Part shown: positions 3,261 through 19,309 of the stretch, in pieces
How positions within the stretch are numbered: the stretch's first letter is position 1
How the letters are laid out: each line of letters begins with the position of its first letter
Source: Alphaproteobacteria bacterium
GTDB lineage: Bacteria; Pseudomonadota; Alphaproteobacteria; SP197
Assembly (NCBI GenBank): GCA_965200495.1
Contig: CBDAUG010000001.1
Coordinates: 1,191,406 to 1,255,405, forward strand
Reading direction: 5' to 3'
DNA length: 64,000 nucleotides
The notes under the pieces: generated by a model
Told to the model about the DNA's origin: nothing
The model's database searches: none
The model's input: the letters and a program-made list of their open reading frames with translations, nothing else
Made by a program: the position numbers and the translations under genes

Positions 3261-4448
3261 ATGCGCCAGCCCCTTCGGCGCAGGCCGTCCATGCTGGTTC
3301 TGGTGATGATCGCGTCGATCGGTCCCCTGGCGCTGCAGGTCCTGGTCCCTGCGATGCCAGGCCTCGCCAGCGACTTCGACACGGATTTTTCCGTCACCCA
3401 GTTGTCTCTTTCGGTGTACCTGATCGGCATTGTGGCGGGGCAACTCGTCTATGGTCCGTTCTCCGACCGCTTTGGCCGCCGTCCGGTGCTCATCACCGGG
3501 CTCGTGGTCTATATCGGTGGCACGCTCTTTTGCCTGGTGGCCTGGAACATCGAGGCGCTCATCATCGGCCGGGCGTTGCAGGCCCTGGGCGGCAGCGCAG
3601 GGATCGTGCTGGCGCGTGCCATCATCAGGGACATGCATGATCGCGAGGGATCGGCGCAGATGCTGGCCTACGTGACGGCCGGCATGATTGTCGCGCCGAT
3701 GGTCGGCGCCATCGCCGGTGGCTACCTCTACGAGTGGTATGGCTGGCAGTCGGTCATGATTCTGGCGCTCACCATCGGTCTTCTCGTGACCGGAGTGTGC
3801 ATCGTCGTTCTGAGCGAAACCAACACGAAGCGCACATCCCGGACCTCGTTTCGGGACATGGTGAGGGATTGCGCGCGCCTCCTCGGCAAGCGGCTGTTCC
3901 TCGGCTACGCCCTGCAGGTCTCCTTCACCACGGCGACGTTCTTCACCTTCCTGGGAGGCGCATCGGCCGTGGCGGTGACCATCTACGAGCGCAGTCCGTC
4001 CGAGTACGCTCTCTGGTTCATGCTGGTGTCAGGCAGCTATATGACCGGCAATTTCATCTCCGGGCGGATCAGCCGCCGGATCGGCATCGACCGCATGATC
4101 ACCATCGGAACGACAGTCTCCTCCTTGGCCGCTCTCGTCATGGTGGCCCTTTTTCTCTTCGGCTGGTTCGGGCTGGTTCATTTCTTCGTGCTGGCAGGGG
4201 TGATGTCCCTGGGCAACGGTTTCAGCATGCCCAACGGCTTCGCCGGCATCGTCAGCGTGGAGCCTGGCCGCGCCGGGACGGCATCGGGTCTCTCCGGCGC
4301 CCTGCAGATGGGTCTGGGCGCCATCGCCATGACCGTTGTCGGCCACACCCTGACGGACAGCGCAATGCCGGTGATTGTCATCATGCTGATCCTTGCGTTT
4401 CTGGCGCTGATCGCCCATGTGCATGGCACAGGAGGAGACGCACCTTGA
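3261..4448 (+). CDS. MFS transporter, Bcr/CflA-like drug efflux family
   Basis: 395 aa with about 12 predicted TM helices. The N-terminal motif GPLALQVLVPAMPGLASDF...GPFSDRFGRRPV matches the MFS signature (D-R/K-x-G-R-R/K). The alternative start at 3291 (MLVLV) cannot be excluded. Confidence 0.75.
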   Translation: MRQPLRRRPSMLVLVMIASIGPLALQVLVPAMPGLASDFDTDFSVTQLSLSVYLIGIVAGQLVYGPFSDRFGRRPVLITGLVVYIGGTLFCLVAWNIEALIIGRALQALGGSAGIVLARAIIRDMHDREGSAQMLAYVTAGMIVAPMVGAIAGGYLYEWYGWQSVMILALTIGLLVTGVCIVVLSETNTKRTSRTSFRDMVRDCARLLGKRLFLGYALQVSFTTATFFTFLGGASAVAVTIYERSPSEYALWFMLVSGSYMTGNFISGRISRRIGIDRMITIGTTVSSLAALVMVALFLFGWFGLVHFFVLAGVMSLGNGFSMPNGFAGIVSVEPGRAGTASGLSGALQMGLGAIAMTVVGHTLTDSAMPVIVIMLILAFLALIAHVHGTGGDAP

Positions 4449-4477
4449 TGATCATGCCGAACCGGGAGATGCAGCGT

Positions 4478-5448
4478 TGAAAGCCTTGCTGTGCCGAGCG
4501 TGGGGTGGACCTGAAGATCTTGTCGTGGATGATGTGGCGGACCCTGAGCCCGGCCCCGGTGACATTGTCGTCCGCGTCGAAGGCTGCGGCGTGAATTTCG
4601 CCGATACCCTCATCATCCAGGGTGCCTACCAGGTGAAGCCCGAACACCCGTTCACGCCGGGCATGGAAGTGGCCGGCACGGTCCTGAAGACCGGGTCAGG
4701 GGTGGACAACGTCAAGCCCGGCGATGCGGTCATCGCCATGCCCGGTGTCGGTGGTTTCGCCGAGCAGGTGGTGTGCAAGGCTTCTCAGGCGATGCGGCGT
4801 CCCGCCGGCATCGATGCTGTGACAGCCGCCGCCATTCCCATCGCCTATGGTACGGCTCACATCGGCCTCGAGGTGCGGGGCAGGCTTCAACCGGGCGAGA
4901 GTCTCCTCGTGCACGGAGCGTCGGGTGGTGTCGGCCTTGCTGCAGTCGAGGTCGGCAAGGCCATGGGCGCCCTCGTCATTGCCACGGCGAGCAGCGCCGA
5001 CAGGCTGGAGACGGCACGCCGTCACGGTGCGGATCACGTCATCAACTATGGTGACGGCGAATTCCGTGGCGAGGTCAAGGAGATCACCAAGGGTGGCGCC
5101 GACGTCATCTTCGATCCCGTCGGTGGTGACGTCTTCGACCAGTCATTGCGCTGCATTGCCTGGGAAGGACGTCTGCTCACCATCGGATTTGCCTCGGGCC
5201 GCATCCCCCAGGCGCCGGCCAACATCCTGCTGGTCAAGAACATCTCCGTCGTCGGCGTTCACTGGTCCAACTATCGTGAAAGCCGGCCCGCACTCCTCGA
5301 ACGCTCCTTCGGGCAGATCTTCACATGGATGTCCGAAGGCGCACTGCGCCCGCTGGTCTCGAGAACCTTTACCCTCAAGGAGGCGCCGCAAGCCCTTGCC
5401 GATCTCGCCGGACGCCGGGCCCGCGGCAAGATCGTGGTCATTCCCTGA
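4478..5448 (+). CDS. NADPH:quinone oxidoreductase / zinc-type alcohol dehydrogenase superfamily (Qor-like)
   Basis: ORF 4417..5448. Qor-like N-terminus (L)KALLCRAWGGPEDLVV...GDIVVRVEGCGVNFAD and nucleotide-binding GASGGVGLAAVE. I chose the TTG at 4478 as start because it gives MKALLCRAWGG typical of the family, a GGGAGA RBS precedes it, and it avoids overlap with the upstream MFS gene. The ATG at 4417 is the alternative. Confidence 0.7.
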
Positions 5449-5463
5449 CATGGCGAGGAAGAC

Positions 5464-6246
5464 ATGATGAGACATCAAGGCAGGATTGCGGTGGTCACCG
5501 GGGCCGCCCAGGGCATCGGGCTTGCCTGTGCCAGGCGGCTGGCGGGAGAGGGTGCGCTGGTCGTCATGGGGGATGTCCAGGGTGCGAAAGTCGCCGAAGA
5601 GGCAGCGTCGCTGGGCGCCGTCGCCATGACCGTGGACGTGTCGCGTCGCGAGGACGTCGATGCGCTTGTCCGGTGCGCCCTTGATACCCACGGCAGGCTC
5701 GACATCATGGTCAACAATGCCGGTGTCGGTTTCAACGCCGGCGTTCTCGACATCGCCGAGGAGGATTTCGACCGCGTCCTCGGTGTCAATCTCAAGGGCG
5801 TGCTGTTCGGCTCGCAAGCCGCGGGCCGCGTCATGGTGGAGCAGGCGTCCGGCGGCGCCATCGTCAACATGTCTTCGGTCCAGGCAGAACTTGCCATTCC
5901 CAACAGTGTTGCCTACGGCGTCTCGAAGGCGGGGATCAACCAGCTGACAAGGATCTTTTCCGTCGCTCTGGCAAGCCACAATGTCAGGTGCAACGCCGTG
6001 GGGCCAGGCACCATACTGACCGACATGGCACGCGGCGCCGTGCTCTCCAGCGACGAGGCCTACCGCATGATCCTCTCGCGCACGCCGCTGGGTCGCCTCG
6101 GCGAGGCGGACGAGGTCGCGCGCGTCGTGTCGTTTCTGGCAAGCGACGATGCAGCCTATGTCACGGGCCAGGTCATCTATCCCGACGGCGGACGCATGCC
6201 GGTGAACTACACCGTGCCGGTGGAGACGCTGCCCGCCATAGAATGA
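5464..6246 (+). CDS. Short-chain dehydrogenase/reductase (SDR) family oxidoreductase
   Basis: 260 aa. TGAAQGIGLA Rossmann motif, NNAG motif, and a YxxxK catalytic region (SVAYGVSKAG). GAGGAAG RBS before the ATG. Confidence 0.85.
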   Translation: MMRHQGRIAVVTGAAQGIGLACARRLAGEGALVVMGDVQGAKVAEEAASLGAVAMTVDVSRREDVDALVRCALDTHGRLDIMVNNAGVGFNAGVLDIAEEDFDRVLGVNLKGVLFGSQAAGRVMVEQASGGAIVNMSSVQAELAIPNSVAYGVSKAGINQLTRIFSVALASHNVRCNAVGPGTILTDMARGAVLSSDEAYRMILSRTPLGRLGEADEVARVVSFLASDDAAYVTGQVIYPDGGRMPVNYTVPVETLPAIE

Positions 6247-6345
6247 CGCACAACGCCCGACTGCTTCAGCGACCGTCTCCAGGAACATTGCGGGCTTGCC
6301 GGGGCATCGATGCATGATTCCCTTGCCATGGCGGCGGCGTCCTAG

Positions 6346-7470
6346 TCATCGCGAGCGCCCGATGAAGGGCAGAGTCGTGACCTCTCCGTCACGCTCGCCG
6401 TCCGGCGTGGCGACCGACACCCGCGTTCCCGGATCCCAGGCGCTGCTTTCCACCATGGCAAGGGCGATGGTGGCGCCGAGGTCGGGTGAAAAGGCCGCGG
6501 ATGTCACCTGTCCGGCCGGTGCGCCTGACACAAGCAGGGGCCAGGGTTCAACACATGCTGGCGCCGCGGCGCCATCGAACCTGATGCCGCGGATCATCCT
6601 GTCGGGACCGCCCGCGTTGCGGATGCGCTCAAGGGCGTCACGGCCGATGAACTCCACGGGTGAGTCCAGATTCACGAAACGCCCGAGGGCACACTCGAAG
6701 GGATTGTTCTCGATTGTCATGTCGTTGCCGTGCGAGAGAAGGGCTCCCTCGATGCGCTCGATGAGATTCGGACAGCCCGGCCCCACGTGAAGATCCCGGC
6801 CGGCGTCGAAAAGCGCATCCCAAAGAGCCTGCCCGATGGCCGCATCGTCGATGTAGATCTCGAACCCGCCCTGCCTGGACCATCCCGAACGCGCCACCAC
6901 GAAGGCATGACCGGCAAAGGGCAGTGCCGCGAAGCCGAAGAAGCGGATGGTGCGCACCTGATCGCCGAGCACTCTCGAGAGGAGGTCGTCTGCCCTTGGA
7001 CCCTGTACGGCGATGGGGCCGACGCCCGGCTCGAAGACGCGTGCGTCGAGATCCAGGCCAAGGGCCAGGCCCTTGCCCCACAGGGCAACGTCGGAATCGG
7101 CGAGGGAAATCCAGAAACGGTCTTCCGCGAGCCGCAGAATGACCGGATCGTTGATCATGCCTCCCGTCTCGTCCACCATTGGCGCATAGGCACACCGGCC
7201 CGGAGCCAACCGGGAAACATCGCGCGACGTCATCAGTTGCACGAGGCGTGCGGCGTGCGGACCGACCACCTCGACCTGCTGTTCGCAGGTCACGTCCCAG
7301 ACCTGAACATGGCGCTTGAGGTGGTGGTAATCCTCCTCGAACCCGCGGAAGAACGTCGGCAGGAGCATGTGGTTGTAGACGGTGAACCCGCCGACGCCCT
7401 GCGCCTCGATACGTGACGTGAACGGTGTGCGGCGGGTGCGGCGCGACATCGAGATCACTGGCTCGTGCAT
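6346..7470 (-). CDS. Aminomethyltransferase-family (GcvT fold) protein, DmdA-like; candidate dimethylsulfoniopropionate demethylase
   Basis: ORF 6346..7923(-) trimmed to the ATG at 7470 (MHEPVISMSRRTRRTPF...), giving about 375 aa, as expected for single-domain GcvT/DmdA proteins. GcvT-fold motifs (FTVYNHMLLP, VQVWDVTCEQQVEV, GGFEIYIDD) and a C-terminal barrel are present. DmdA specificity is inferred from resemblance only. Confidence 0.65.
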   Translation of the reverse strand: MHEPVISMSRRTRRTPFTSRIEAQGVGGFTVYNHMLLPTFFRGFEEDYHHLKRHVQVWDVTCEQQVEVVGPHAARLVQLMTSRDVSRLAPGRCAYAPMVDETGGMINDPVILRLAEDRFWISLADSDVALWGKGLALGLDLDARVFEPGVGPIAVQGPRADDLLSRVLGDQVRTIRFFGFAALPFAGHAFVVARSGWSRQGGFEIYIDDAAIGQALWDALFDAGRDLHVGPGCPNLIERIEGALLSHGNDMTIENNPFECALGRFVNLDSPVEFIGRDALERIRNAGGPDRMIRGIRFDGAAAPACVEPWPLLVSGAPAGQVTSAAFSPDLGATIALAMVESSAWDPGTRVSVATPDGERDGEVTTLPFIGRSR

Positions 7471-7856
7471 GGTCCTGTCCCTGGTGGCCGAGAAGGCCCT
7501 CAATCGTGCTACGCTCGGCCGCCGGTGTATAGTTTTCCTCGACAGGGTCAGGACATGGTGAAACGCGACATCCTGCAGAAACTCTGCGGCAGCAGGGATC
7601 CGGTCCATGATTCCTGCGCCGAAACCTGTGATGCGACAATCTTCACGACACTGAACGACCGGGATCACGGGCTCGTTGTCGATGCCGTGCGGTCCCGTCC
7701 TGGCGACGATGCGAGGGTCCTTGATGCCGGAGCAGGCAGGGGATTTACCCATGTCGGCGCCATGGATGCCGGTGCCCTGGATCTCTCGGCGGGCATGATC
7801 GTCAAACACGAGAGGCTTGATCTGTTTCGCGATGCGCCACGACCGCTTACCGGCGG

Positions 7857-8645
7857 GTGTCGCCGTGCATGGGTGAGCGAGCCATGCGAGCCCATGCCGG
7901 GCGGTATGCCGGAACTCCGGCACAGGACCTGGCTTTTCCGGGTCATGTCGGGGCGTGCGGCAGCGTGACGGGCGCCGACCCGAAACCCGGACGCCCGGTA
8001 TGCGTGTGGGATCGCCCGACGCGGGTGTTTCACTGGGTTCTCGTCGTGCTTTTCGTCGTTTGCTATGTCAGCGGCGACCGTGGCAGGTTCGACATTCACA
8101 TCATGGCAGGAGAGGCCCTGCTGATCCTTGTCGTGGCGCGGATCATCTGGGGGTTCGTGGGCAGCGACACTGCCCGGTTTCGGCACTTCCTGCGCCCCCC
8201 GGGCGAGATCATGGCCCATGTGCGGTCCCTTGGTGAGCGACGGCCCGGCCACGAGGTCGGTCACAATCCCCTGGGAGGGCTTTCCGTTGTCCTGATGCTG
8301 TTCCTTCTCGTCATCCACACGGGTTCCGGGCTCCTTGCGGTGGATGTCGACGGATGGAACGAAGGACCGCTGTCGCATCTCGTGAGTTACGAAGCAGCGC
8401 GCAGTGCCTCGGCTGTTCACGCCATCACGGTTGACATGCTGCTCGTGCTGGTCGCCCTCCACGTGGCGGCTGTCGGATTTCACTGGCTCTACAGGCGCGA
8501 CAACCTCATCGGTCCCATGGTGACGGGCCGCAAGCGCCTTCCTCCGCAACGTGAGGCTCCGCGTCTCGTCGCGGACATCCGTGCCCTTGCCGCCCTTGCC
8601 ATTGCCGCTGCAGTGGTGTGCGCAGTGCTGTCGCTTGCCGGGTAG
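7857..8645 (+). CDS. Cytochrome b561 family (Ni/Fe-hydrogenase-type b cytochrome, CybB/YodB-like)
   Basis: VWDRPTRVFHWVLVVLFVVCYVSGD is the canonical start of the cytochrome b561 bacterial family. Four TM helices with conserved His residues are present. The start is uncertain: ATG at 7857, ATG at 7884, or the GTG near 7966. Confidence 0.7.
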   Translation: MSPCMGERAMRAHAGRYAGTPAQDLAFPGHVGACGSVTGADPKPGRPVCVWDRPTRVFHWVLVVLFVVCYVSGDRGRFDIHIMAGEALLILVVARIIWGFVGSDTARFRHFLRPPGEIMAHVRSLGERRPGHEVGHNPLGGLSVVLMLFLLVIHTGSGLLAVDVDGWNEGPLSHLVSYEAARSASAVHAITVDMLLVLVALHVAAVGFHWLYRRDNLIGPMVTGRKRLPPQREAPRLVADIRALAALAIAAAVVCAVLSLAG

Positions 8646-8648
8646 TGT

Positions 8649-9122
8649 TCAGTGGTCCTCGGCGCGGAAGACCGCATGACAGCCGCCGCACCCGTCGCGC
8701 CCAAGGGCCATGAAGGCCTCGGTCTGCGAGTCGCCATCTCCCGACGCCAGCGCCGTCTCGAGCATGGTCGCCCGCTCTCCCAGGAGTTGTGATGCCATCT
8801 CGAAGTCGGACCAGTTTTCCCAGATGGCATCGAGAGCGCCGGTTCGGGGCAGGGCGTCGACGCCGGTCCCCGGGGGAAAGAGCGATGGAATGGCGGCAGC
8901 TGCGTCCTTCAGGGCGCCGGTTGCCGCCAGAGCCTCCCCGGCACTGTTGCGGCCGGAGAGGAAACTCTTGATGGTCCGCATGGCTATTCCTATCTCTTTC
9001 ATGACCACGTGGCGCTCCTGGCCCAGCCTTTCGGCGTCCTCGAGGCTGACGATGTCGTCGCCCGACCAGGCCGCGGATCCCAGCACCACAGAAACAATCA
9101 CCGTCAGGATGGACTTACGCAT
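8649..9122 (-). CDS. Cytochrome c' (class II c-type cytochrome)
   Basis: ORF 8649..9170(-), start moved to the ATG at 9122, which has a GGAGGA RBS 8 nt upstream. It has a signal peptide (MRKSILTVIVSVVLGSAAWSG). The single CXXCH heme site (CGGCH) lies near the C-terminus, as in cytochrome c'/c556. Confidence 0.8.
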   Translation of the reverse strand: MRKSILTVIVSVVLGSAAWSGDDIVSLEDAERLGQERHVVMKEIGIAMRTIKSFLSGRNSAGEALAATGALKDAAAAIPSLFPPGTGVDALPRTGALDAIWENWSDFEMASQLLGERATMLETALASGDGDSQTEAFMALGRDGCGGCHAVFRAEDH

Positions 9123-9398
9123 GGCCGGTCCTCCACTTCTCAAGATGTGCAAGAGACTGAAACAGGTCATGTGGAGCCCGCAAGCCCCCGGCGCCGCTGT
9201 GAACGCAATCCGGCTGCCAGGGATCCGTCACGGAGCCTTGCGCAAGGGATCGCAACGAAGCCCGGACTTGACCCGGCATCACGATTGCGTAAATCGTGAG
9301 GCCTGCCCGGGTCACGGTGACATGGACCAGGCGGCCGATACGGTCCCGTGTCATGGGTCACGACAACCGGCTTTTTTTCAGGGCGGGGAGGTGCAGCA

Positions 9399-10844
9399 AT
9401 GAGCAGGGGCACCACTGTCTTTGCCCTTATTGTCTCCGTGCTGCTCATCGCTGTAGCCGGTGTGCTCAACATGCTGGCAAGGCAGAGCGGGGAAGCCGTC
9501 CTCGCCGATGCGGTGACGATGGCAACGGAGATTCGCGACGGCGTACGGGAAGCGGGAGTACCCGCTGTCAACGGAGTCCTGGAGACGGCATCACGCTTGC
9601 GGGCGACCCTTGATGCCGTTTCGGATCCTCAAGAAGACCTTGCCGGCAAGGTTGATGCATTGCGGGAGCGGCTGCAGCGGAGAGAGCGTGCAGCCGAAGC
9701 CCTCGGCGATGCTGATTCGTCGCTTTCCGAGGCGATCGATGTCTGGAAATCGGCGGTTGCCAGAGCCGGGAAGGGGGCATCGGACCTGGCCGGACTCGTG
9801 GAGGGCATGGACCGGTATCTCGCCGGAACCGGCCCTGCCCCGAGCCTTGAATCTGTCCGTTCCCACGGTGATGTGGCGCTTGTTGCGGCAGCAAACAGTC
9901 TGGTGAGCGAAAAGCGCGCTCTGGATGCGCTGCTCGAGGGGCTGGCTGCCAACAGGGTGACCGGTGCAGCCGAGCAACTCGTCATGTCCCTGGAGATCGA
10001 GCGCGGCCGCCGGGCGCTTGTCGCCCGCAACTATGATGATGCGACGGTTGCCGCCTTTGGTGCTCTGGCGCTGGTCTGGGTTCTGCTTGGCATCCGCGGG
10101 CGACGCCCCGGTGAGCCGGCGCAACACAAAGCCGATCCCGTCAGGGGAACACTGCTGATCCGCGGAACGGCGGCAGCGGTGGCGATGCGGGCGCAACGTC
10201 TCGCCGCGCACACCAATGCGCTGAGAGAGACCCGCCAGAGACTTGGAAACGCCATCGTCGAGGCCGGGCTGGACCGGTCGCTCAACGATGATGCTTCCCT
10301 TCACCTGGAAGTGGAAAACCTGGACGGTCATCTCGCCTGCCTGCGCGATGAAACCGGCGAACTGTCGTCTCTGGGCAAGCGCCTGTGGACTCTTGCCGGG
10401 GGGGCAGCGCAGGCGTCGACAGCCAGTATCAACGCGTGCATCAGGGAAGCGCTCGAGGCGATCAGGGCAGGCCACCGGATTCCTGTCATGACGGAACTTG
10501 CCGATGTCGGTGATGTCAGAGGTGTGGCATCCGACATCGTGCTGGCCCTGACGGCCCTGATCGAACGTGTCCTCACGGCGTCGCGGGAAGCAGGAATGGA
10601 CCACAGCGCCATTCGCGTCTTCAGCGCGGCCAGTGATGACCGGGTGCATGTCACGATCACCGGAGGCGCTCCCCTTCCACAGTTCACGGAGCGTACGTTC
10701 AGGCCGTACGGCGCCTCTCACGAGCTGGCACTGGCTATCGCTCTCCTCAGACGTCATGGCGGCAGCGTGATCCTGGGTTCGTCCATCGCCGGGGAGGCCT
10801 CGGCGCGCATATCCCTTGTCGCCGCATCGGGAGATCAGACATGA
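9399..10844 (+). CDS. Membrane-anchored sensor-histidine-kinase-like protein with degenerate (probably inactive) HATPase domain
   Basis: ORF 9348..10844, start at the ATG at 9399, preceded by a GGGGAGG RBS. Topology is TM1 (aa 5-25), a roughly 190 aa extracytoplasmic coiled-coil-rich region, TM2 (about aa 215-235), and a cytoplasmic region with a DHp-like helix (AAHTNALRETRQRL). The CA-like domain has an N-box LTALIERVLT (Asn lost), a G1 box TITGGAP (Asp lost) and a G2 box ASHELALAIA (degenerate). Its stop overlaps the next gene's start (ATGA at 10841-10844). Confidence 0.6.
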   Translation: MSRGTTVFALIVSVLLIAVAGVLNMLARQSGEAVLADAVTMATEIRDGVREAGVPAVNGVLETASRLRATLDAVSDPQEDLAGKVDALRERLQRRERAAEALGDADSSLSEAIDVWKSAVARAGKGASDLAGLVEGMDRYLAGTGPAPSLESVRSHGDVALVAAANSLVSEKRALDALLEGLAANRVTGAAEQLVMSLEIERGRRALVARNYDDATVAAFGALALVWVLLGIRGRRPGEPAQHKADPVRGTLLIRGTAAAVAMRAQRLAAHTNALRETRQRLGNAIVEAGLDRSLNDDASLHLEVENLDGHLACLRDETGELSSLGKRLWTLAGGAAQASTASINACIREALEAIRAGHRIPVMTELADVGDVRGVASDIVLALTALIERVLTASREAGMDHSAIRVFSAASDDRVHVTITGGAPLPQFTERTFRPYGASHELALAIALLRRHGGSVILGSSIAGEASARISLVAASGDQT

Positions 10845-12832
10845 AGGCGCTGCGCTTTCGGGTTCGCAACTATCGCAACATCGAGGACAGCGGCTGGGTA
10901 CCACTCGATCCGGTCACGGTCCTTGTCGGACGCAACGAGTCGGGAAAGACCTCCCTGCTGAAGGCGCTCAACAAGTTCAATCCGGGAACGGCGGAAACCT
11001 TTGACGCTCAGCGCGAATTTCCGCGTGACCGCTATACGCGCGACTATGTCCTTGCCGGTTCCACGGGCGCGGAGTGGCCTGTCTGTTCCATCGAGTTCGA
11101 GATTCCCGACCAGCAGAAACGCGATATCGCAACCCTGCTGGGTCCGGACCGGGCGGTGCCCGAGAAGGTCACCGTCACGCGCCACTACGACGGCTCTCTC
11201 GCATTTTCCTACATGCCTCAGATCGGGGCCAAACCGGCAGGGCCGGATCCTCTCATGGGGGCTCTCGAGGATCTGGCGCTTTCTGACGATTCGCCGCGCC
11301 TGGCTGCATGGGCCAGCGCGTGGCACGATCGGTTGAGCAAGATTGATGACGTCACAAGCGCTGCCGGCCGTGCCGCTCTGGCCGAAATCGACGCAGAGAT
11401 TTCCGGCCTCGGTGATGAACGGCTCGGCGCTCTCGGTGCGATCGTCGCCGCCATGCTGCGGATGCCCTTCGCAAGCAGGGTGATCGATCACGTCAACGCC
11501 CTGGTGGAACGCGAGCTGCCGCGGCTCGTCTACTTCGAGAACTATGGCGTTCTCGACAGTGCCATCTGGCTGCCGGAGATGTTGCGGGGCCTTGAACGCG
11601 AGGAACCGGAACCGCGGTTCCGAACCGCCCTTGCGCTCTTTCGTCATGCGGGCCTTGATCCGCGGGACATCGCGGAACTCGCCTCCCCGGGCAACACGGC
11701 GCCGGGCGAAGACATGCAACGCAAGATGGAGGAGCGGGCCATCCGTCTCAATGCCGCGTCGGTCGACATCAGCCGTCGCTGCAGCGCGTTGTGGTCGCAG
11801 AGGCGCCATCGCATCCGGTATCACGTCGACGGAGATTACTTTCGCATCAGGGTTGCTGACGATTCGCTGGAGGACGTGGAGATCGAGCTGGAATCCCGCG
11901 GCAAGGGTTTCCAGTGGTTCCTCTCGTTTTTCCTCGTCTTTGCCGCGGAGTCGGAGGGCGCCATGGGCGACGCCATCATCCTGCTGGACGAACCCGGCCT
12001 CAGCCTTCACCCGACGGCACAACGTGAACTGCTGGCGTTCTTCGAGCGTTTGTCCGCCGAAAACCAGGTCATCTACACAACGCATTCACCGTTTCTTGTC
12101 GACGGTGATCATCTCGAGCGGGTGCGTCCGGTGTTCGAGGAGGACAACGGGCGTGCCCGCATCCTCAAGGGTTCATGGCCCGCCCATCCCGAAACGGTGT
12201 TCGCGCTCAAGGCGGCTGCCGGATATGCGATGTTCGATTCCCTTGCGCAACGTGGTCGGGCGCTGCTTGTCGAACAGGTCAGCGACGCCTGTTACCTCGA
12301 GGCGCTGTCGCGGCACTGTGGCAGAACGGGGAGGAGCGCGCTGGACGATTCCGTCGACGTGGTGCCCTGTGGCGGTGCGGCGGTGTGCGGTTATCTGGCA
12401 TCCCTCCTCATGGCCGAGCACCGGCGTCCGCTGATCCTCTTCGACGGCACGGACGCCGGGCGCCTGCGGCGGCATGGACTGGTGAAGGGCCTCCTCGACG
12501 AGGGAGACAGTTCGATTGTTCTCCTCGACGAAGCTCTCGGCTGGTCCGGACATGATATGTGCCTCGAGGATCTCTTCGGCGAGAGCATCATCCTCGAGTG
12601 TCTCGGCACTGCGACCGGGATCAGGCTGTCGCTTGCCCATGACGCTGATCGGGCGAGCCTCGTCGGTCGCATCGAGAGCGCAGCAGCGACGGCAAACATT
12701 GCGCTTCCCCGATCCTGGCGGTTGGACACGGCCCTGACGGTGACGTTGTCGCAAGTGTCCCTGCCGGACGACGTCCTCGATTCGGCCTCGCTTCTCTTCA
12801 CGAAGCTTGCCGGTGACGACCAGGGACAATGA
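10841..12832 (+). CDS. OLD-family nuclease-like protein: N-terminal ABC-type (AAA_15/AAA_21) ATPase plus C-terminal Toprim-like domain
   Basis: 663 aa. Walker A GRNESGKTS at aa 30-38. An OLD/AAA_21-type Walker B/signature ILLDEPGLSLHP and an H-loop YTTHSP. The C-terminal about 200 aa has Toprim-like motifs (LLVEQVSD, VVPCGG, ILFDGTD, VLLDEA). Translationally coupled to the upstream gene. Confidence 0.65.
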   Translation: MKALRFRVRNYRNIEDSGWVPLDPVTVLVGRNESGKTSLLKALNKFNPGTAETFDAQREFPRDRYTRDYVLAGSTGAEWPVCSIEFEIPDQQKRDIATLLGPDRAVPEKVTVTRHYDGSLAFSYMPQIGAKPAGPDPLMGALEDLALSDDSPRLAAWASAWHDRLSKIDDVTSAAGRAALAEIDAEISGLGDERLGALGAIVAAMLRMPFASRVIDHVNALVERELPRLVYFENYGVLDSAIWLPEMLRGLEREEPEPRFRTALALFRHAGLDPRDIAELASPGNTAPGEDMQRKMEERAIRLNAASVDISRRCSALWSQRRHRIRYHVDGDYFRIRVADDSLEDVEIELESRGKGFQWFLSFFLVFAAESEGAMGDAIILLDEPGLSLHPTAQRELLAFFERLSAENQVIYTTHSPFLVDGDHLERVRPVFEEDNGRARILKGSWPAHPETVFALKAAAGYAMFDSLAQRGRALLVEQVSDACYLEALSRHCGRTGRSALDDSVDVVPCGGAAVCGYLASLLMAEHRRPLILFDGTDAGRLRRHGLVKGLLDEGDSSIVLLDEALGWSGHDMCLEDLFGESIILECLGTATGIRLSLAHDADRASLVGRIESAAATANIALPRSWRLDTALTVTLSQVSLPDDVLDSASLLFTKLAGDDQGQ

Positions 12833-13077
12833 ACGGCAGATTGATCCCATTCCAGGGTTTCGTCTCTGGAACCCGCCGCTGTTGGTGATGCCGACCGTCT
12901 TCTTCATCGCCAGACCCGTTGCCGATGTCGCGCACGGCACTGCGAGCACCCGGACATTGCCGGCATGGAGGCGGAGTTTGTCGATCGAACGATCCGTTGA
13001 TGCGGTTTGCATTGGCGCCGTGAAGTGGCTATAAGCAGCAATAGCAGGAAACTTCGTTTCATCAGAGGAAACAGACC

Positions 13078-13989
13078 ATGTGCGGAATCGCCGGTATCCT
13101 GTTGAAGAACGGGGACAGTGGCATCGACACCGGGACGGCGCTGGTCGACATGCTCGACGGCTGTCAGCACCGCGGACCGGACTCGACCGGCTTCGCCCTT
13201 TACGAGAGTGGCGAGGAAGGCCATCTCAAGCTGCGGTTTCAGGTCGGGTCCGACAACGAGGCGGGCGACGCCATCGCAGCCCTCAAGAAGGTTCTCGACG
13301 AACACGCCGCCGAGGTCGTCGAGGAAGAACGCATCGCTGGCAGCTATCGGGTCGTGGTGCGTTTCAGCGGTGACCTGCAGGCGTTCTCCTACGCCGTAGA
13401 GCAGGCCGCCAAGGTGGTGTCGATCGGCGAGAGCCTGGAGATCGTGAAAGACGTGGGCGGCGCCCATGACGTCGACGACACCTATGACGTCCATCTGTTC
13501 AGGGGCTCGCACGGTCTGGGGCATGTGCGCCTTGCCACCGAATCGGATGTCAAGCCGGAGGCCTCGCACCCCTTCTGGGCGACCGGATTTGCCGATGTCG
13601 CGATTGTCCACAACGGACAGATCACGAATTACTGGAAGATGCGCCGTCGTCTCGAACGCCGCGGGTTCGCGTTCGCGACGGACAACGACAGCGAACTCAT
13701 TGCCGTCTATCTGGCCGACAAGATGAGTCAGGGGATTGCCCTCAAGGACTCCCTGGCCTCGTCCATTGATGACATGGACGGAACATTCTCCTTTCTTGTG
13801 TCGACCCGTGACGAGATCGGCTATGCGAAGGATCGGCTTGCTGCCAAGCCGATGATCATGTTCGAGAACGATGACCTGATTGCCATTGCCTCTGAAGAGG
13901 TCTCGCTCAATCGCCTGTTCCCGGGCCGCGCACTCGATACCCGTGAACCGCCTCCGGGAAGCTACAGAACATGGTCACGATCGATCTGA
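13078..13989 (+). CDS. Class-II (Ntn) glutamine amidotransferase domain protein, GlxB/MgsA-like glutamate-synthase-type
   Basis: Starts MCGIAGI, with a catalytic N-terminal Cys after Met. 303 aa. GAGGAAACAGACC RBS. First gene of a glutamate-synthase-like operon. Confidence 0.8.
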   Translation: MCGIAGILLKNGDSGIDTGTALVDMLDGCQHRGPDSTGFALYESGEEGHLKLRFQVGSDNEAGDAIAALKKVLDEHAAEVVEEERIAGSYRVVVRFSGDLQAFSYAVEQAAKVVSIGESLEIVKDVGGAHDVDDTYDVHLFRGSHGLGHVRLATESDVKPEASHPFWATGFADVAIVHNGQITNYWKMRRRLERRGFAFATDNDSELIAVYLADKMSQGIALKDSLASSIDDMDGTFSFLVSTRDEIGYAKDRLAAKPMIMFENDDLIAIASEEVSLNRLFPGRALDTREPPPGSYRTWSRSI

Positions 13990-15944
13990 AGAACCTGTCG
14001 ACCCGCGAAGCCAACGAGAGCATTCGCGAGGCTGCGGCACGGGGCGAGACCATCGAGGTTCTCAATCCGGACGCTCGCCATCACATCGGTGTCGGCGTCA
14101 TTCACCCGGTTGATATCCATGTCCGTGGATCTGCCGGATACTTCTGCGCCGGACTGACCGACACACCGCGCTTTCACGTTGAACGCAATGCCGGCTGGGG
14201 GCTGGCAGACAACATGTACCGGGGATCCGTCGTGGTGGGCGGCAACGCCGGCGCCATCGCCGGGGTGGCGATCCGCGGCGCGGAAGTGGTGATCCGGGGC
14301 AACATGGGGTCGCGGGCCGGACAGGTCATGAAAAAAGGGACACTGCTGTGCTGCGGCAACGCCAACTTCATGGCCGGCTACATGATGTATGGCGGACGCC
14401 TGATCATCCTGGGCGAGTCGGGTGAGCGCCTCGGCGAGGACATGACGGGAGGCGAGATCTTCCTTGGCGGCGACCTCGTGTCGCTGGGGTCCGACGCCAT
14501 GGAGATCGATATCGCGCAAGACGAGATGGACGAGGTCCGGGCCTTTCTCGACCGCTACGAGATTGCCTTCCGTGGCGGGTTCCGCAAGATCGTGAATGCC
14601 GGAAAGAAACTGCGCTACGGCACCCCGGAGCGCCAGGTGCGCTCGATTCCCTACTTCAACTTTTCCGGCTCCAGCGATTACTGGAATCACAAGGTCCAGG
14701 AAGACGTCTACATCAAGTCCCAGATCGGACGCTATCGGGTGAGGGGGTACGGCGGCGCCCGCGAACTGCCGCATCTTTCCGACCTTGCCTTTGCCCGGGA
14801 CATCGTTCCGTACGCTGTCGGCGACGATCCGGTCTCCCATGTTCACATGCATACGCTGATTGGCGGCAAGAACGGTGCCAGACCCCTTGACCTGACGATG
14901 CCTGTGCTCATTGCTCCGATGAGCTACGGCGCTCTTTCGCGCTCCGCCAAGCAGGCGGTCGCCATCGCATCGGGCATGGCGGGGATCGCCGAGAATACCG
15001 GGGAAGGCGGCATGAGCGACGCGCAGCGTGACGCGGCAGGTCAGCTCATCTTCCAGATGCTCGGTGGCCGTCTGGGCTGGAACATCCACGACATGAACCG
15101 GGCGGACGGCCTGGAGATCTACATTTCCCAGGGCGCCAAGCCGGGATTCGGCGGCCAGCTCATGGCCAAGAAGGTGACGAAGGAACTGGCCGAGATCCGT
15201 GGCATCCCGGCCGGCATCGACCTTCGTTCACCATCACGCCATCCCGACATCCTGGGCGCCGACGATCTCGTCATCAAGGTCGAGGAGTTGCGCGAGGCGA
15301 CGGGCTACCGCCTGCCGGTCAGCGTCAAGCTGGGGGCGGGCCGCATCCACGACGACATCAAGATTGCCGTCAAGGACGGCTTCGATTTCGTCGAACTCGA
15401 CGGCATGCAGGGTTCGACCGGCGCCGGCGGCGCCGAGGTGATGGAGTATGTCGGCATCCCGACGATCTCTGCCATCTGCGAGGCAGAACGCGCCCTCGCC
15501 TCCATCGGCCGCCGCAAGGATATCGAGATCGTTCTCATGGGAGGGCTGAGAGACGGGGTTGATGCTGTCAAGGCCATGTGCCTGGGGGCCGATGCCGTGG
15601 CGCTGGGGACCGCCGCCATCATTGCCGGTGGCTGCATTGCCTGCATGCAGTGTCATGTCGGCCAGTGTGTCACCGGTATCGCCACCCAGGATCCCGACCA
15701 CGAGAAGCGCTACAAGCCCGAAATCGAGGCGCAGCACATCTATACTTTCCTTGAAAGCGTACGCTGGCAGATCGCGGCCATCACATGGGGATTGGGATAT
15801 GATGACGTACGTGGTCCGTGCCGCGATGACCTCGTCGCTCTCACACCTGAAGCGGCCGAGATTACCGGCCTTGCGCTGCGCCCGGAACGCCGGGCTGCCA
15901 GACTGCCGGAGACCGATGCAGCAATGGAACGGGTCCTTCGATGA
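13971..15944 (+). CDS. Fused GXGXG-domain (GlxC/MgsB-like) and FMN-binding glutamate-synthase central domain (GlxD/MgsC-like) protein
   Basis: 657 aa. The N-terminal about 230 aa has repeated G-x-G motifs (VVVGGNAGAIAG, VIRGNMGSRAG, LLCCGNANFMAG) typical of the GltB C-terminal GXGXG domain. The remainder has FMN-domain motifs (ISQGAKPGFGGQL, LDGMQGSTGAGG, GGLRDGVDAVKAMCLGADAV, CHVGQCVTGIATQD). The 19-nt overlap with the upstream gene is consistent with co-translation. Confidence 0.8.
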   Translation: MVTIDLKNLSTREANESIREAAARGETIEVLNPDARHHIGVGVIHPVDIHVRGSAGYFCAGLTDTPRFHVERNAGWGLADNMYRGSVVVGGNAGAIAGVAIRGAEVVIRGNMGSRAGQVMKKGTLLCCGNANFMAGYMMYGGRLIILGESGERLGEDMTGGEIFLGGDLVSLGSDAMEIDIAQDEMDEVRAFLDRYEIAFRGGFRKIVNAGKKLRYGTPERQVRSIPYFNFSGSSDYWNHKVQEDVYIKSQIGRYRVRGYGGARELPHLSDLAFARDIVPYAVGDDPVSHVHMHTLIGGKNGARPLDLTMPVLIAPMSYGALSRSAKQAVAIASGMAGIAENTGEGGMSDAQRDAAGQLIFQMLGGRLGWNIHDMNRADGLEIYISQGAKPGFGGQLMAKKVTKELAEIRGIPAGIDLRSPSRHPDILGADDLVIKVEELREATGYRLPVSVKLGAGRIHDDIKIAVKDGFDFVELDGMQGSTGAGGAEVMEYVGIPTISAICEAERALASIGRRKDIEIVLMGGLRDGVDAVKAMCLGADAVALGTAAIIAGGCIACMQCHVGQCVTGIATQDPDHEKRYKPEIEAQHIYTFLESVRWQIAAITWGLGYDDVRGPCRDDLVALTPEAAEITGLALRPERRAARLPETDAAMERVLR

Positions 15945-18457
15945 CGGATGCCAACATCCTGCCCGAGGAGCTCGCGGACGATACAGCCGACCGGCATTTC
16001 GTGCCCGCCCCCTGCCAGATCGCCTGCCCGGTCGGCACGGATGCGCCATCCTACATTGCCCATATCTGGGAGGGCAGGTTTGCCGAGGCCTTCGAGGCCA
16101 TCACGGCGACCAACCCGTTCAGCTCTATCTGCGGGCGCGTCTGCGATGCACCCTGTGAGCCGGCGTGTCGGCGCGCCTCAAGCGATGGCCCCTTGCAGAT
16201 CCGCAATCTCAAGCGCTTTGTCATGGACAGGCTCGGGGCCGAATGGGTGCCGGCAGCGGCGGCTGTGACCCGTGAAGAGAGTATCGGCATCGTTGGAGCC
16301 GGGCCGGCCGGACTGGTGGCGGCCCACGATCTTGCCGTTGCCGGCTTCAGGGTCGATGTCTACGAGATGACCGACCGTCCCGGCGGCATGATGATCTGGG
16401 GCATTCCGGCGTTTCGGTTGCCGGCGGGAACCCTGAAGGAAGATATGGACAGGCTGAAGGCCCGCTGTCCCGGTCTTTCCATCCACACGAATATTGCCCT
16501 GGGCCAGGACGTCACGCTTGCCGAGCTCAAGGAACGCCACGCTGCGGTGGGACTCACCATTGGTTCCTGGTGGGGCAAGACCATGGGGATTCCCGGTGAG
16601 GATGACGACCGCGTGATCGACGGCGTCGAGTTCCTGCGCCGGGTGAACGCAGGAGAACGCCCCGACATGCCGGCAACGGTCGTCGTCATTGGCGGCGGCG
16701 ATGTCGCCATGGATGCCTGCCGTGCCGCCCTGCGTTTGCCGGGGTGCGAGGAGGTCAAGGTCATCTACCGCCGCGGGCCGGAAGATATCCCGGCGCGGAA
16801 GATCGAACTCGAGGGCGCCATCGAGGAGGGCATCGAGTTCATCTACAACACGCAGCAGGTCGGCGTTCTTGCCGACAACGAGAACAGCTTGAGACTACGC
16901 TGTGTTCGCACCAAGGCTGGCGAACCGGATGCAGACGGCCGTCGCCGGCCGGTGACGGTCGAGGGATCCGAGCACGACATCAGCTGTGGCATGGTGATCG
17001 CCGCGGTCGGCCAGTATGGCGCCTGCGACGACCCCGCCACCCGGACTCTCATGTCTGACGATCGTGTGCGGACCGACTGGGAGACCATGCGGACCGATGA
17101 TGCGCAGGTCTTTGCCGCCGGTGACGGCGCCTTCGGGGGATCCACCATCGTCATGGCCATGAGCCATGGCCAGCGGCTTGCCTACTACATCAAGGCGTGG
17201 CTCGACGGTATCGACGATCCTGTTCCCTATCGTACGCCGTGGCGGACGCGGCGTGTGCCGGTGGCCCAGGACCTCAAGTGGGAGCTTCTGGGCCTGCATC
17301 ATCCGCCGTTCCACGGTGTTGGCGACAATCCGGTTGCGTTCCCGGAAATCGAGTCGACCTATACCTGGGCCGAAGCCCGCAACGAGGCGGCGCGATGCTA
17401 TCGCTGTGACGCCGAAACAGGCTCGGCGGACTACTCTGTCGCCAACCGGGAGGACATCTTCCTGATGGCGCGGATGAAGCGTGACGATACAACGCGCCAG
17501 GCCGCCATGCTGACCAAGCGCCTGCGGTCGCGCGACAATCCGTTTCCCGCAGATCGTCCGGCCACGGTCGACGATCTGGTTTTCCTGCCGGCCAATCTGT
17601 CGAGGCTGGTGATCGACCCCTATCGCGAGGCCTGCAAGGTGGCGACGGAACTGGGGTCCGGACGCATGGAGCTGGCGCAGCCCTTTTTCGTGACCGGCTT
17701 TGACAACGCGCCGGCCGAAGTGAAGCGGGGGATCGGACGCGGAATTGCAGAAGCGGCAGCGGGCTACATCGGCATGCGGCCGGTCGCCGACGATGTGGCC
17801 TGGCTGCAACTGGTGGTGGAGGGTCAGATTCCGCCACAGGCGGAGGCCGCGGGCCTCATTCATGTCATCGGTCCGCGCTTCGAGGCGCCAGGGAATATCG
17901 GCCGGTTCCGCGACGGGCAGGTCACCGGTCTTGCCGTCTCCCATGCGAGCGCTCTCGAGGATGCCATCGGCTTTGCCCTCGATCAGGACCTCGATGTTCT
18001 CCTGGTCAATGGCAACACCGCCACCGGGCGTGACTGGCCGGAACTGACCGGCGCTCCTGACCTCACGCTCATGCGTGACACCATTGCCTGCCTGCGCCGG
18101 CTCAACCGGGAAGAGGAAATCGATGTCCTCTGGTTTGGCGGCCTGCGTTCCGGAACCGACGCCGCCAAGCTCATCGCCATGGGTGCGAAGTCGCTGGTCA
18201 TGGGCATGACCGTGGCCTTGGCGGCAGGAGCCGAGTTTGACGATTCCCACCGGCTTGCATTTGCCCCCGATATCACGGCCGATGAATGCGCGAGGGCGGT
18301 TGCCAACATCCTGAAGTCGGCAGCGGGCGAGGCGTCGATGATGGCACGTTGCACCGGCAAGACCAATCTCCACAACCTGGAACCCGAAGACCTGCGCGCG
18401 CTCACGCTCGCCACTGCCGAGGCCACCGGACTGATTCTCGCCGGACACGCGTCCTGA
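15941..18457 (+). CDS. GltD-like NAD(P)H-dependent FAD/Fe-S oxidoreductase fused to a degenerate glutamate-synthase FMN-domain-like C-terminal module
   Basis: 838 aa. The N-terminal about 470 aa has Cys clusters (CQIACPVG, CGRVCDAPCEPAC) and dinucleotide folds (IGIVGAGPAGL, VVVIGGGDVAMD) like glutamate synthase small subunit GltD. The C-terminal about 370 aa resembles a GltB FMN barrel (LLVNGNTATG, VLWFGGLRSGTDAAKLIAMGAKSLV) but lacks the canonical GG-GGTGA motif. Start overlaps the upstream stop (ATGA). Confidence 0.7.
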   Translation: MTDANILPEELADDTADRHFVPAPCQIACPVGTDAPSYIAHIWEGRFAEAFEAITATNPFSSICGRVCDAPCEPACRRASSDGPLQIRNLKRFVMDRLGAEWVPAAAAVTREESIGIVGAGPAGLVAAHDLAVAGFRVDVYEMTDRPGGMMIWGIPAFRLPAGTLKEDMDRLKARCPGLSIHTNIALGQDVTLAELKERHAAVGLTIGSWWGKTMGIPGEDDDRVIDGVEFLRRVNAGERPDMPATVVVIGGGDVAMDACRAALRLPGCEEVKVIYRRGPEDIPARKIELEGAIEEGIEFIYNTQQVGVLADNENSLRLRCVRTKAGEPDADGRRRPVTVEGSEHDISCGMVIAAVGQYGACDDPATRTLMSDDRVRTDWETMRTDDAQVFAAGDGAFGGSTIVMAMSHGQRLAYYIKAWLDGIDDPVPYRTPWRTRRVPVAQDLKWELLGLHHPPFHGVGDNPVAFPEIESTYTWAEARNEAARCYRCDAETGSADYSVANREDIFLMARMKRDDTTRQAAMLTKRLRSRDNPFPADRPATVDDLVFLPANLSRLVIDPYREACKVATELGSGRMELAQPFFVTGFDNAPAEVKRGIGRGIAEAAAGYIGMRPVADDVAWLQLVVEGQIPPQAEAAGLIHVIGPRFEAPGNIGRFRDGQVTGLAVSHASALEDAIGFALDQDLDVLLVNGNTATGRDWPELTGAPDLTLMRDTIACLRRLNREEEIDVLWFGGLRSGTDAAKLIAMGAKSLVMGMTVALAAGAEFDDSHRLAFAPDITADECARAVANILKSAAGEASMMARCTGKTNLHNLEPEDLRALTLATAEATGLILAGHAS

Positions 18458-18642
18458 AGCGACCGTCGTCAGGTTCTCCTGACGGATCGCACATCACCAT
18501 GCATCCGTCGCTGACGCCGGGCGCCGTGCGGAAGCGACCGTCTTCAGGTGTTCTCCGAAACACTGTTTCATGTTCCGGGGCACGTGCTCCCAGGCATTCA
18601 TGACCGGTTTTCGTGGCGGGCCGCACAACACGGCGCGACCGT

Positions 18643-19176
18643 TCAGGTTCTCGTGGCGGGTGCGAAATCGATGACCCTGGCCTCGTGACCGCAGGCCGAG
18701 AGGAAGCGCAGGAGATCGCGCGGATGAAGCACTGTCGTCCGGTTGTTGACGAGCGGATGCAGGTTGACGCGATCCGTTTCCATGATGGCTTGATCGATGC
18801 ACACGCCGATGTCCTCGTCCGTGTCATTGATCAGGGCAAAGGGCGTGACGGCCCCGGGTTCGACACCGAGGATGTCACGCACTCTTTCGGGGCGAGCGAA
18901 ACTCAGGCGTGCAGAGCCGATGAGTCCGGCAAGGACCTTGAGGTCGAGTTGGCGTGATTCCTCGACCACCGCGAGCCACAGCTGCGCCTTCTTGTCCTTG
19001 AAGAACAATGTCTTGCAGTGAAGTCCGGGGAGGCTGCCACGCAACGCGCGGTTGTCGGCCACGGTATGCACAGGCTCATGTTCGTGGGTCGTAGAGGAAA
19101 TGCCGAGTTCCTTGAGTCTGGCGATCAGGTCCCCGGACGTCGCCCTGCCCGGCATTGTCGTCGTTGGTCGGTTCAT
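18643..19176 (-). CDS. YbaK/ProX-like aminoacyl-tRNA deacylase domain protein
   Basis: 177 aa ORF. The core (HxxVHT, GSLPGLHCKTLFFKDKK, AGLIGSARLSFARPE, GAVTPFAL) matches the YbaK/ProRS-editing fold. The start is uncertain: 19176 or the ATG at 19155. Confidence 0.6.
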   Translation of the reverse strand: MNRPTTTMPGRATSGDLIARLKELGISSTTHEHEPVHTVADNRALRGSLPGLHCKTLFFKDKKAQLWLAVVEESRQLDLKVLAGLIGSARLSFARPERVRDILGVEPGAVTPFALINDTDEDIGVCIDQAIMETDRVNLHPLVNNRTTVLHPRDLLRFLSACGHEARVIDFAPATRT

Positions 19177-19260
19177 GGGGCATGTGATCCGGTCTGTTGG
19201 TGCAATCGAACCCCGGCCTTGCGGCGGTCGACGAATGTCCTACACTTCGCCGGACCTGAT

Positions 19261-19282
19261 GCAAGGGGTCTCGATCCCTTGC
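19261..19282. promoter_or_regulatory. Perfect 7-bp inverted repeat with 8-nt spacer (GCAAGGG-N8-CCCTTGC) in the amt/ybaK-like divergent upstream region
   Basis: gcaaggggtctcgatcccttgc lies 28 nt upstream of the amt RBS. It could be an operator or an RNA hairpin. No sigma-54 (TGGCAC-N5-TTGCW) element was found nearby. Confidence 0.3.
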
Positions 19283-19309
19283 TGATCACTGCTGGAGGGT
19301 TCCAGGAAG

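Follow-up and report, generated by a model that had tools for sequence, protein, structure and literature searches.

An OLD-family ATPase–Toprim protein with a degenerate DxD motif, encoded beside a membrane kinase-like gene in an alphaproteobacterial subclade

OLD-family nucleases are widespread effectors of phage defence, with P2 Old, Gabija, retron effectors and PARIS as examples, and their regulation is poorly understood. Here we describe an OLD-like gene on a 64,000-nt stretch of an alphaproteobacterial contig (CBDAUG010000001.1, positions 1,191,406 to 1,255,405; hereafter the window, whose numbering is used throughout). The open reading frame (ORF) runs from 10841 to 12832 on the + strand, which carries all features given below unless stated otherwise, and encodes 663 aa comprising an ABC ATPase, a Toprim domain and a C-terminal helical region, in this order. 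Its ATG overlaps the stop codon of the gene upstream by 4 nt (ATGA), and a GGAGA is located 8 nt upstream of the start. The product of this upstream gene (9399–10844) is a 481-aa membrane protein resembling histidine kinases (P0121) when read from M18 of the mechanically called ORF, which starts at 9348. A preliminary description of the locus had reported Toprim-like catalytic motifs within 11950–12832 and proposed that the OLD-like protein is a putative DNA nuclease.

An OLD-like protein with an ATPase and a Toprim domain

The N-terminal two thirds of the protein are an OLD/AbiEii-type ABC ATPase: the query alone matched Pfam AAA_15 (E 8e-26) and AAA_21 (E 1e-19), and the PADLOC models AriA, Old, GajA and PtuA matched over the ATPase lobes. 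The Walker A motif (GRNESGKT, with K36; 10928–10951) is invariant in an alignment of 48 family members and in all 59 family loci. Also invariant across the family loci are the Walker B motif (ILLDEPG, aa 380–386, with D383 and E384; 11978–11998), aligned to 'IIEEPE' of the Thermus scotoductus OLD protein (Ts OLD), and the H-loop (YTTHSP, aa 412–417, with H415; 12074–12091), aligned to Ts 'YSTHSP'. With K36, D383/E384 and H415 all invariant, the ATPase is intact at the level of sequence. An antisense ORF at 10835–12085 (−) was disregarded; it recurs in related loci merely as a shadow of the conserved + gene.

The C-terminal third comprises the Toprim core (approximately aa 470–585; 12248–12595) and the helical region (aa 586–663; 12596–12829). 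The OLD-like protein has 4712 homologues at E ≤1e-5, and a family profile was built from 48 full-length members. By phmmer, the best match of the query in the PDB was Ts OLD (6p74, E 3e-10), with the alignment restricted to the ATPase. The 48-member profile matched 6p74 at E 6e-14, and one stretch of this match (E 7e-8) reached from Walker B and the C-lobe of the ATPase into the Toprim domain, where it covered the Glu, the CGG and the first Asp of the DxD motif. Here, Ts 'LLVEGYGD', 'DCGG' and 'VVVHD' (D431) stand opposite 'VLVEGMSD', 'PCGG' and 'LVLLD' of the family, which equates Ts E377, D381, CGG and D431 with query E478, D482, C510–G512 and D535. An hhalign comparison of the full-length family profile with phage P2 Old gave a probability of 94.9% and residue equivalences that agree with the 6p74 alignment: 'LLVEGKTE' and 'ILADCD' of P2 fall on query 'LLVEQVSD' and 'ILFDGT', equating P2 E398 and D453-C-D455 with E478 and D535-G-T537. 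Furthermore, PF20469 matched 19 of the 23 C-terminal regions of family members that were scanned alone (best E 1.4e-7), and is precomputed on most relatives with 49–52% identity to the query.

The AlphaFold2 (AF2) models were confident (predicted local distance difference test, pLDDT, of 80.4 for the full-length and 83.8 for the C-terminal model), with four beta strands alternating with helices in the Toprim core, followed by the helical region. In Foldseek, the top match of the full-length model was again 6p74 (E 4e-14), followed by GajA 8x5i (E 4e-11), both over the whole length; ATPase-only proteins (PtuA, SMC heads) aligned over ∼500 columns. Chance motifs are ruled out by homology and conservation, the match exceeding chance because the positions are conserved in homologues. 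Overall, the C-terminal third is thus a genuine and well-supported OLD-family Toprim domain, as the preliminary description had proposed. All the strings it quoted (YTTHSP, LLVEQVSD, VVPCGG, ILFDGTDAG and VLLDEALG) are present in the translation of 10841–12832 (+), and the Toprim domain does lie inside the interval it gave, which starts at aa 370 and so takes in Walker B and the H-loop of the ATPase as well.

Toprim active-site residues within and outside the subclade

In OLD proteins, the metal-A residues are E377, D431 and D433 of Ts OLD, E400, D455 and D457 of Burkholderia pseudomallei OLD (Bp OLD), and E398, D453 and D455 of P2 Old (PMC7049728, PMC6755086). Metal B is served by an acid four residues after the Toprim Glu plus an S/T/D-x-E motif (Ts D381, S478 and E480; Bp E404, T506 and E508; P2 E402, D541 and E543), and the catalytic Lys or Arg is Bp K562, P2 K550 and Ts R487 (PMC7049728, PMC6755086). 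We scored conservation of the corresponding positions in 53 relatives from outside the query subclade, which have 28–50% identity and span many bacterial phyla as well as some archaea.

The query keeps seven of nine near-universal Toprim positions. E478, in the motif E478-Q-V-S-D482 (12272–12286; within LLVEQVSD, aa 475–482, nt 12263–12286), is the Toprim Glu of metal A and the counterpart of Ts E377, P2 E398 and Bp E400, kept in 52 of the 53 relatives. D482 is the +4 acid of metal B, the counterpart of Ts D381, P2 E402 and Bp E404 (Asp in 50/53). The Toprim glycine motif C510-G511-G512 (12368–12376; within VVPCGG, aa 507–512, nt 12359–12376) follows beta-2 and is aligned to Ts 'DCGG', with G511 and G512 each kept in 52/53. 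D535, the first DxD Asp and counterpart of Ts D431 and P2 D453, is kept in 51/53. The two exceptions are position 479, which is Gly in 49/53 and Gln in the query, and position 537, at the site of Ts D433, P2 D455 and Bp D457, which is Asp in 51/53 and Thr in the query. The canonical DxD with both aspartates is therefore absent from the degenerate motif D535-G-T537-D538 (12443–12454; within ILFDGTDAG, aa 532–540, nt 12434–12460).

Comparison with the relatives refines the motifs of the preliminary description. The replacement of Gly by Gln after the Glu had been recognized correctly and is specific to this lineage. The reading of DGTD as DxD-like was out of register: the canonical positions are D535-x-T537, and position 538 is variable across the 53 relatives (D25/E10/K4/R3 and others, A and G also being seen). 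D538 could possibly substitute for the lost Asp, yet it is unconserved in distant relatives and therefore not a family ligand; we rejected it as such. VLLDE, proposed as a catalytic motif, is part of VLLDEALG (aa 560–567; 12518–12541) and not a family-wide feature, with D563 varying between D, G and S in distant relatives. The real fourth motif, which had been missed, is C574-L-E576-D577-L-F-G-E581 (12560–12583; LEDLFGE, aa 575–581, nt 12563–12583), in which E576 and D577 are each invariant (53/53) and position 574 varies between E, A, S, T and C, with Cys in the query. Based on motif pattern, conservation and location at the start of the helical region, we infer that C574-x-E576 is the metal-B S/T/D-x-E motif represented by Ts S478/E480, Bp T506/E508 and P2 D541/E543. 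Position 627, likewise overlooked, is always basic (Lys in 48 and Arg in 5 relatives); the query's R627, in the helical region (nt 12719–12721), is a candidate counterpart of Bp K562, P2 K550 and Ts R487. As catalytic bases, K514 and R568 were rejected: both are conserved solely within the clade of ∼40–50% identity, with position 514 variable in distant relatives, whereas 627 is the family-wide basic position.

The query subclade consists of seven alphaproteobacterial cluster representatives (the query and P0002–P0007) with 63–91% identity. All seven have Q, H, N or D at position 479 and T, A or S at 537, and the subclade is also without K514, Y506, R568, E572 and E574, which are conserved in the ∼50%-identity clade. 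By these alignments, the losses of G479 and D537 are derived and confined to one alphaproteobacterial subclade. Pairwise ratios of nonsynonymous to synonymous substitution (dN/dS) among close relatives were 0.09–0.15 for the Toprim core and 0.11–0.16 for the ATPase. Judged by this dN/dS of ∼0.1, the Toprim domain is under purifying selection in the subclade and is not decaying.

Independently degenerate Toprim sites were also seen in three other lineages (match 8001–∼10100 in each locus). At the D-x-D, a Thalassobaculaceae metagenome-assembled genome (MAG; L027) reads E-S-G and Prosthecomicrobium hirschii (L043) reads D-D-G, the latter also with His at the site of D482; a Thaumarchaeota MAG (L057) has Q478 and N535. 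Asp replaces G479 in these three and in L020, in which the DxD is intact. Within the subclade, two copies of the OLD-like gene were interrupted, one by a 1-nt length difference with a stop after 168 aa (L006:8001–9990) and the other called as two genes of 296 and 388 aa (L082:7589–9672). These are either pseudogenes or long-read assembly errors.

The kinase-like gene and the genomic setting

The kinase-like gene is located directly upstream of the OLD-like gene in 12/12 subclade loci (L001–L005, L007, L079–L083 and L006, with the OLD gene frameshifted in the last). It was found in the subclade only, and adjoins the OLD-like gene in none of the ∼50%-identity relatives. In the alignment, its product has two hydrophobic, membrane-like segments and a C-terminal histidine-kinase-type ATPase domain. 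Relatives of 39% identity match PF02518 (HATPase_c) at E 1e-11, and the family profile matches the kinase domains of FixL, ZraS and VanS. The candidate phospho-accepting His of the family is unconserved (H, R or L at the site). Furthermore, the query protein has lost the DNG and N-box residues in the alignment and has a degenerate G2 box; on these features, it looks like a pseudokinase.

The gene order of the subclade is GCV_T, methyltransferase, cytochrome b561, cytochrome c', kinase-like, OLD-like, DUF1045 (in relatives) and split glutamate-synthase genes. This fixed housekeeping locus is shared by loci whose OLD proteins are just 63–68% identical to that of the query, and we take the gene to be chromosomal and inherited vertically. 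The window shows no sign of a defence island or mobile element, no helicase, reverse transcriptase, AriB or integrase gene is listed nearby in the neighbour gene tables, and no Rfam family was found in window positions 4000–20000.

The ∼50%-identity relatives are spread over many phyla and belong to operons of the restriction-modification or defence type (L008, L011 and other Latescibacterota loci, and L017, L018 and L042, among them). Roughly 10 loci have an HsdS-like gene whose end overlaps the OLD gene by 4 nt, and HATPase_c_4 and HsdR genes downstream of it. In ∼9–10 others, the OLD gene comes after genes for a DUF1156 methyltransferase and for a DUF499 ATPase, and helicases with a NOV_C domain are encoded close by. 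Several related loci come from MAGs of Poribacteria and Latescibacterota, lineages that we take to be sponge-associated; some isolate names (IRC4, RHO2, RHO3 and COS3) also resemble sponge-host labels.

Directly downstream of the OLD-like gene, the window has a glutamine amidotransferase gene and the relatives have a DUF1045 gene. In the relatives, this DUF1045 (2H-phosphoesterase-like) gene overlaps or abuts the OLD stop, and genes for a cupin and an acyl-CoA dehydrogenase sometimes come after it. Homology between the window and the relatives breaks off ∼10 nt past the OLD stop and resumes near 12970, within the interval 12833–13077; the DUF1045 gene is deleted, and its first few codons (ATGAACGGCAG...) remain. 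The split archaeal-type glutamate synthase set (13078–18457, +) has overlapping stop and start codons and consists of a GATase subunit (92–96% identical across the subclade), a GXGXG/Glu_synthase subunit and a Fer4_20/Pyr_redox subunit; the set is strongly conserved within the subclade and represents ordinary housekeeping.

Candidate functions and comparison with known OLD systems

Four OLD classes have been described: lone genes (Class 1), genes with a GajB helicase (Class 2), retron effectors (Class 3) and PARIS (Class 4) (PMC10568477, PMC12392090). For the present protein we favour, with somewhat better than even confidence, a retained nuclease with a weakened metal-A site, a kinase-like partner and vertical inheritance. 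It would be an ATPase-gated, divalent-metal-dependent enzyme whose two-metal site keeps E478 and D535 for metal A, D482 and E576, with D577, for metal B, and G511–G512 and R627. The weakened metal A would favour nicking or slow cutting instead of processive DNA degradation; on balance, we incline modestly to the view that nuclease activity persists, probably in such a form. The gene would be co-transcribed with the membrane-anchored kinase-like gene, whose product may control or localise the OLD-like protein. This reading is supported by the profile and fold matches, by the active-site residues shared with the 53 relatives, by the low dN/dS of the Toprim core, by the intact ATPase and by the pairing with the kinase-like gene in 12/12 loci. 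Loss of the second DxD Asp may also be tolerable: in Bp OLD, the part of this residue is limited to hydrogen bonds with waters of metal A, and mutants with a single Ala substitution show no defect in vitro. One metal site, whichever of the two it is, suffices there for nicking, and processive cutting needs both (PMC6755086).

Several results weigh against this interpretation. On its own, the query stays under the threshold of every Toprim profile (PF24395, OLD-like_TOPRIM_1, E 0.06, or E 0.0095 with the C-terminal fragment; PF20469, E 0.047), and the matches of the single query in Pfam, NCBIfam and PADLOC scans are confined to the ATPase. The 6p74 Toprim alignment emerges only with the ATPase as an anchor: the C-terminal profile had no PDB match by HMMER even at E ≤10, its hhalign comparison with the single P2 Old sequence gave the same register without significance (E 0.12, probability 0.5%), and Foldseek with the C-terminal model alone returned nothing significant, with 6p74 at rank 6 (E 0.13). 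DUF4435, which the preliminary description had suggested checking alongside Toprim profiles, matched neither the query at E ≤1 nor the 23 C-terminal regions at E ≤0.1. Since the family as a whole gives significant profile matches and its acids are conserved, the Toprim claim nevertheless stands. At the active site, the equivalences of E576 and R627 are putative ones drawn from pattern, conservation and position, and the D455A mutation of P2 Old, at the site of T537, abolished killing in vivo (PMC7049728). In P0007, D535 is missing too, GGT replacing DGD, so that both DxD aspartates are gone. The variation within the subclade at positions 479 (Q/H/N/D), 514 (A/T), 537 (T/A/S) and 574 (C/R/S) looks like relaxed constraint. 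Of the columns that are ≥90% conserved in the main family, 24.8% are fully replaced in the subclade in the C-terminal region versus 10.9% in the ATPase (Fisher p 0.002, which is only indicative because the sequences are related to one another). Nuclease activity, substrate and partner are predictions, and the DNA nuclease of the preliminary description stays putative, with one of three metal-A residues missing in the query.

Many of these points would fit a domesticated, catalytically dead Toprim that serves as a metal-, nucleic-acid- or protein-binding module of an ATPase working with the kinase-like protein in housekeeping or signalling, cleavage being no longer selected. We consider this rather unlikely, while taking it seriously. 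It is favoured by the loss of D537 and G479 in this lineage only, alongside the clade-conserved K514, R568 and E572/E574, by the variability of the lost positions and the GGT of P0007, and by the uneven column replacement and the P2 null phenotype. The fixed housekeeping locus between the cytochrome c' and glutamate synthase genes, unlike the restriction-modification operons of the relatives, argues in the same direction, as do the degenerate sites of L027, L043 and L057. However, drift would be expected at the remaining acids of a dead site as well, whereas six of the seven subclade sequences keep E478, D482, D535, E576, D577 and R627, at a dN/dS of ∼0.1. Single metal-ligand mutants of Bp OLD are still active in vitro (PMC6755086), and a metal-bound water can still be held by Thr or Ser, which is the role of Ts S478 and Bp T506 at metal B. 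At the other extreme, the protein could be an ordinary, processive Class 1 OLD exonuclease/endonuclease that acts alone in phage defence, the substitutions being neutral and the kinase-like neighbour irrelevant. The architecture shared with Ts OLD and P2 Old, the lack of a helicase, reverse transcriptase or AriB gene nearby and the tolerance of Bp OLD to single-ligand mutations in vitro (PMC6755086) would agree with this. Yet D537 and G479 are conserved in 51/53 and 49/53 outgroup sequences and are therefore not neutral positions in the family, and processive cleavage by Bp and Ts OLD requires both metal sites and the basic residue (PMC7049728, PMC6755086). With the coupling to the kinase-like gene in all 12 loci and a window devoid of defence-island or mobile-element context, we regard this explanation as improbable. 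Scarcely credible, finally, is the idea that the domain is no nuclease domain at all but a receiver-like module of the CheY fold, to which the neighbouring kinase-like protein passes a signal. Toprim and receiver domains do share a general alpha/beta fold, but the OLD matches score higher and extend over 143–179 residues versus ∼100, and no Response_reg match was obtained in Pfam at E ≤1 for the query or at E ≤0.1 for the C-terminal regions. Moreover, the query is continuous in sequence with canonical OLD Toprims at 50% identity, and its would-be partner has no conserved phospho-accepting His and, in the query version, neither DNG nor N-box.

The lineage amounts to a natural experiment in which the second DxD Asp and the Gly beside the catalytic Glu were lost while the remaining two-metal site stayed under purifying selection, and in which the gene departed from the restriction-modification-type operons of its relatives to become fixed behind a membrane sensor-kinase-like gene. 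Should the protein still cut, it would reveal the extent to which the OLD metal-A site tolerates trimming; should it not, it would exemplify a defence nuclease put to other use. Either way, the kinase-like/OLD-like pairing points to a mode of OLD regulation outside the four described classes, and the protein should not be labelled simply as an active OLD nuclease in annotations. The bolder idea that the two genes form a previously undescribed, vertically inherited OLD system outside Classes 1–4 strikes us as distinctly doubtful. In such a system, a degenerate membrane sensor would control an ATPase–Toprim protein with an attenuated or repurposed nuclease site, a mobile defence nuclease having been domesticated by one alphaproteobacterial lineage.

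Like the query, the Class 1 proteins Ts OLD (6P74) and P2 Old combine an N-terminal ABC ATPase, which carries a helical insert, with a C-terminal Toprim, and have no helicase, reverse transcriptase or AriB partner. Ts OLD ranks first both in the sequence-profile comparison and in full-length Foldseek, and the Toprim Glu, the +4 acid, the CGG and the first DxD Asp of both proteins align one-to-one with the query. In contrast to both, the query has Thr for the second DxD Asp and Gln for the Gly after the Glu. It also carries a C-terminal helical region, which Ts OLD does not have (PMC7049728), and is longer than the 6p74 chain (663 versus 528 aa). Furthermore, Class 1 genes stand alone, whereas translational coupling ties the query gene to the kinase-like gene.

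Bp OLD (6NK8), a GajA-like Class 2 protein, has a Toprim followed by a helical domain, as in the query, and its T506-x-E508 and K562 set a pattern that C574-x-E576 and the basic residue 627 fit. However, the two share 16% sequence identity, the query lacks the second DxD Asp that Class 2 proteins conserve without exception (PMC6755086), and no UvrD/GajB helicase gene adjoins it. PADLOC GajA models matched only weakly. We rejected Class 2/Gabija, with no helicase in the gene tables and no helicase cluster recurring beside the gene in 78 related loci. A Class 3 retron effector was likewise rejected: the neighbour tables hold no reverse transcriptase, positions 4000–20000 no Rfam family, and the NCBIfam retron Eco8 effector model scored 29 bits against a cut-off of 250. 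Class 4 PARIS was rejected for want of a DUF4435 match, the PADLOC AriA model matching only the generic ATPase C-lobe (residues 307–421).

A possible precedent for an attenuated yet functional OLD active site is the Class 1 OLD of Vibrio cholerae (Vc OLD), which has a non-canonical metal-ligand set, acts on DNA as a nickase without degrading it and remains protective against phage (PMC12392090). The two are likened here by description and not by sequence comparison, and they differ in that the variation of Vc OLD lies in the metal-B triad (Asn for Ser) and that of the query in the DxD. Moreover, Vc OLD is a single-gene defence system, whereas the query gene is paired with the kinase-like gene. 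Full-length homology is found with the ∼50%-identity main family (P0008–P0120, L008–L056), at 49–52% identity, E ∼1e-200 and the same domain order. Its members have the canonical motifs VLVEGMSD, CGGTK, LLDGDDAGR and EIEDILGE and, unlike the query, keep G479 and D537; they are encoded in type I restriction-modification (HsdS/HsdR) or DUF1156-methyltransferase/DUF499 operons and have no kinase-like neighbour. By descent and architecture, the OLD-like protein is thus a member of the OLD ATPase–Toprim family that falls outside the context definitions of the four classes. Compared with known OLD systems, its Toprim assignment as such is ordinary; judged from sequence and context, what sets it apart is that the DxD is broken, that the gene is vertically inherited and that it has a kinase-like partner.

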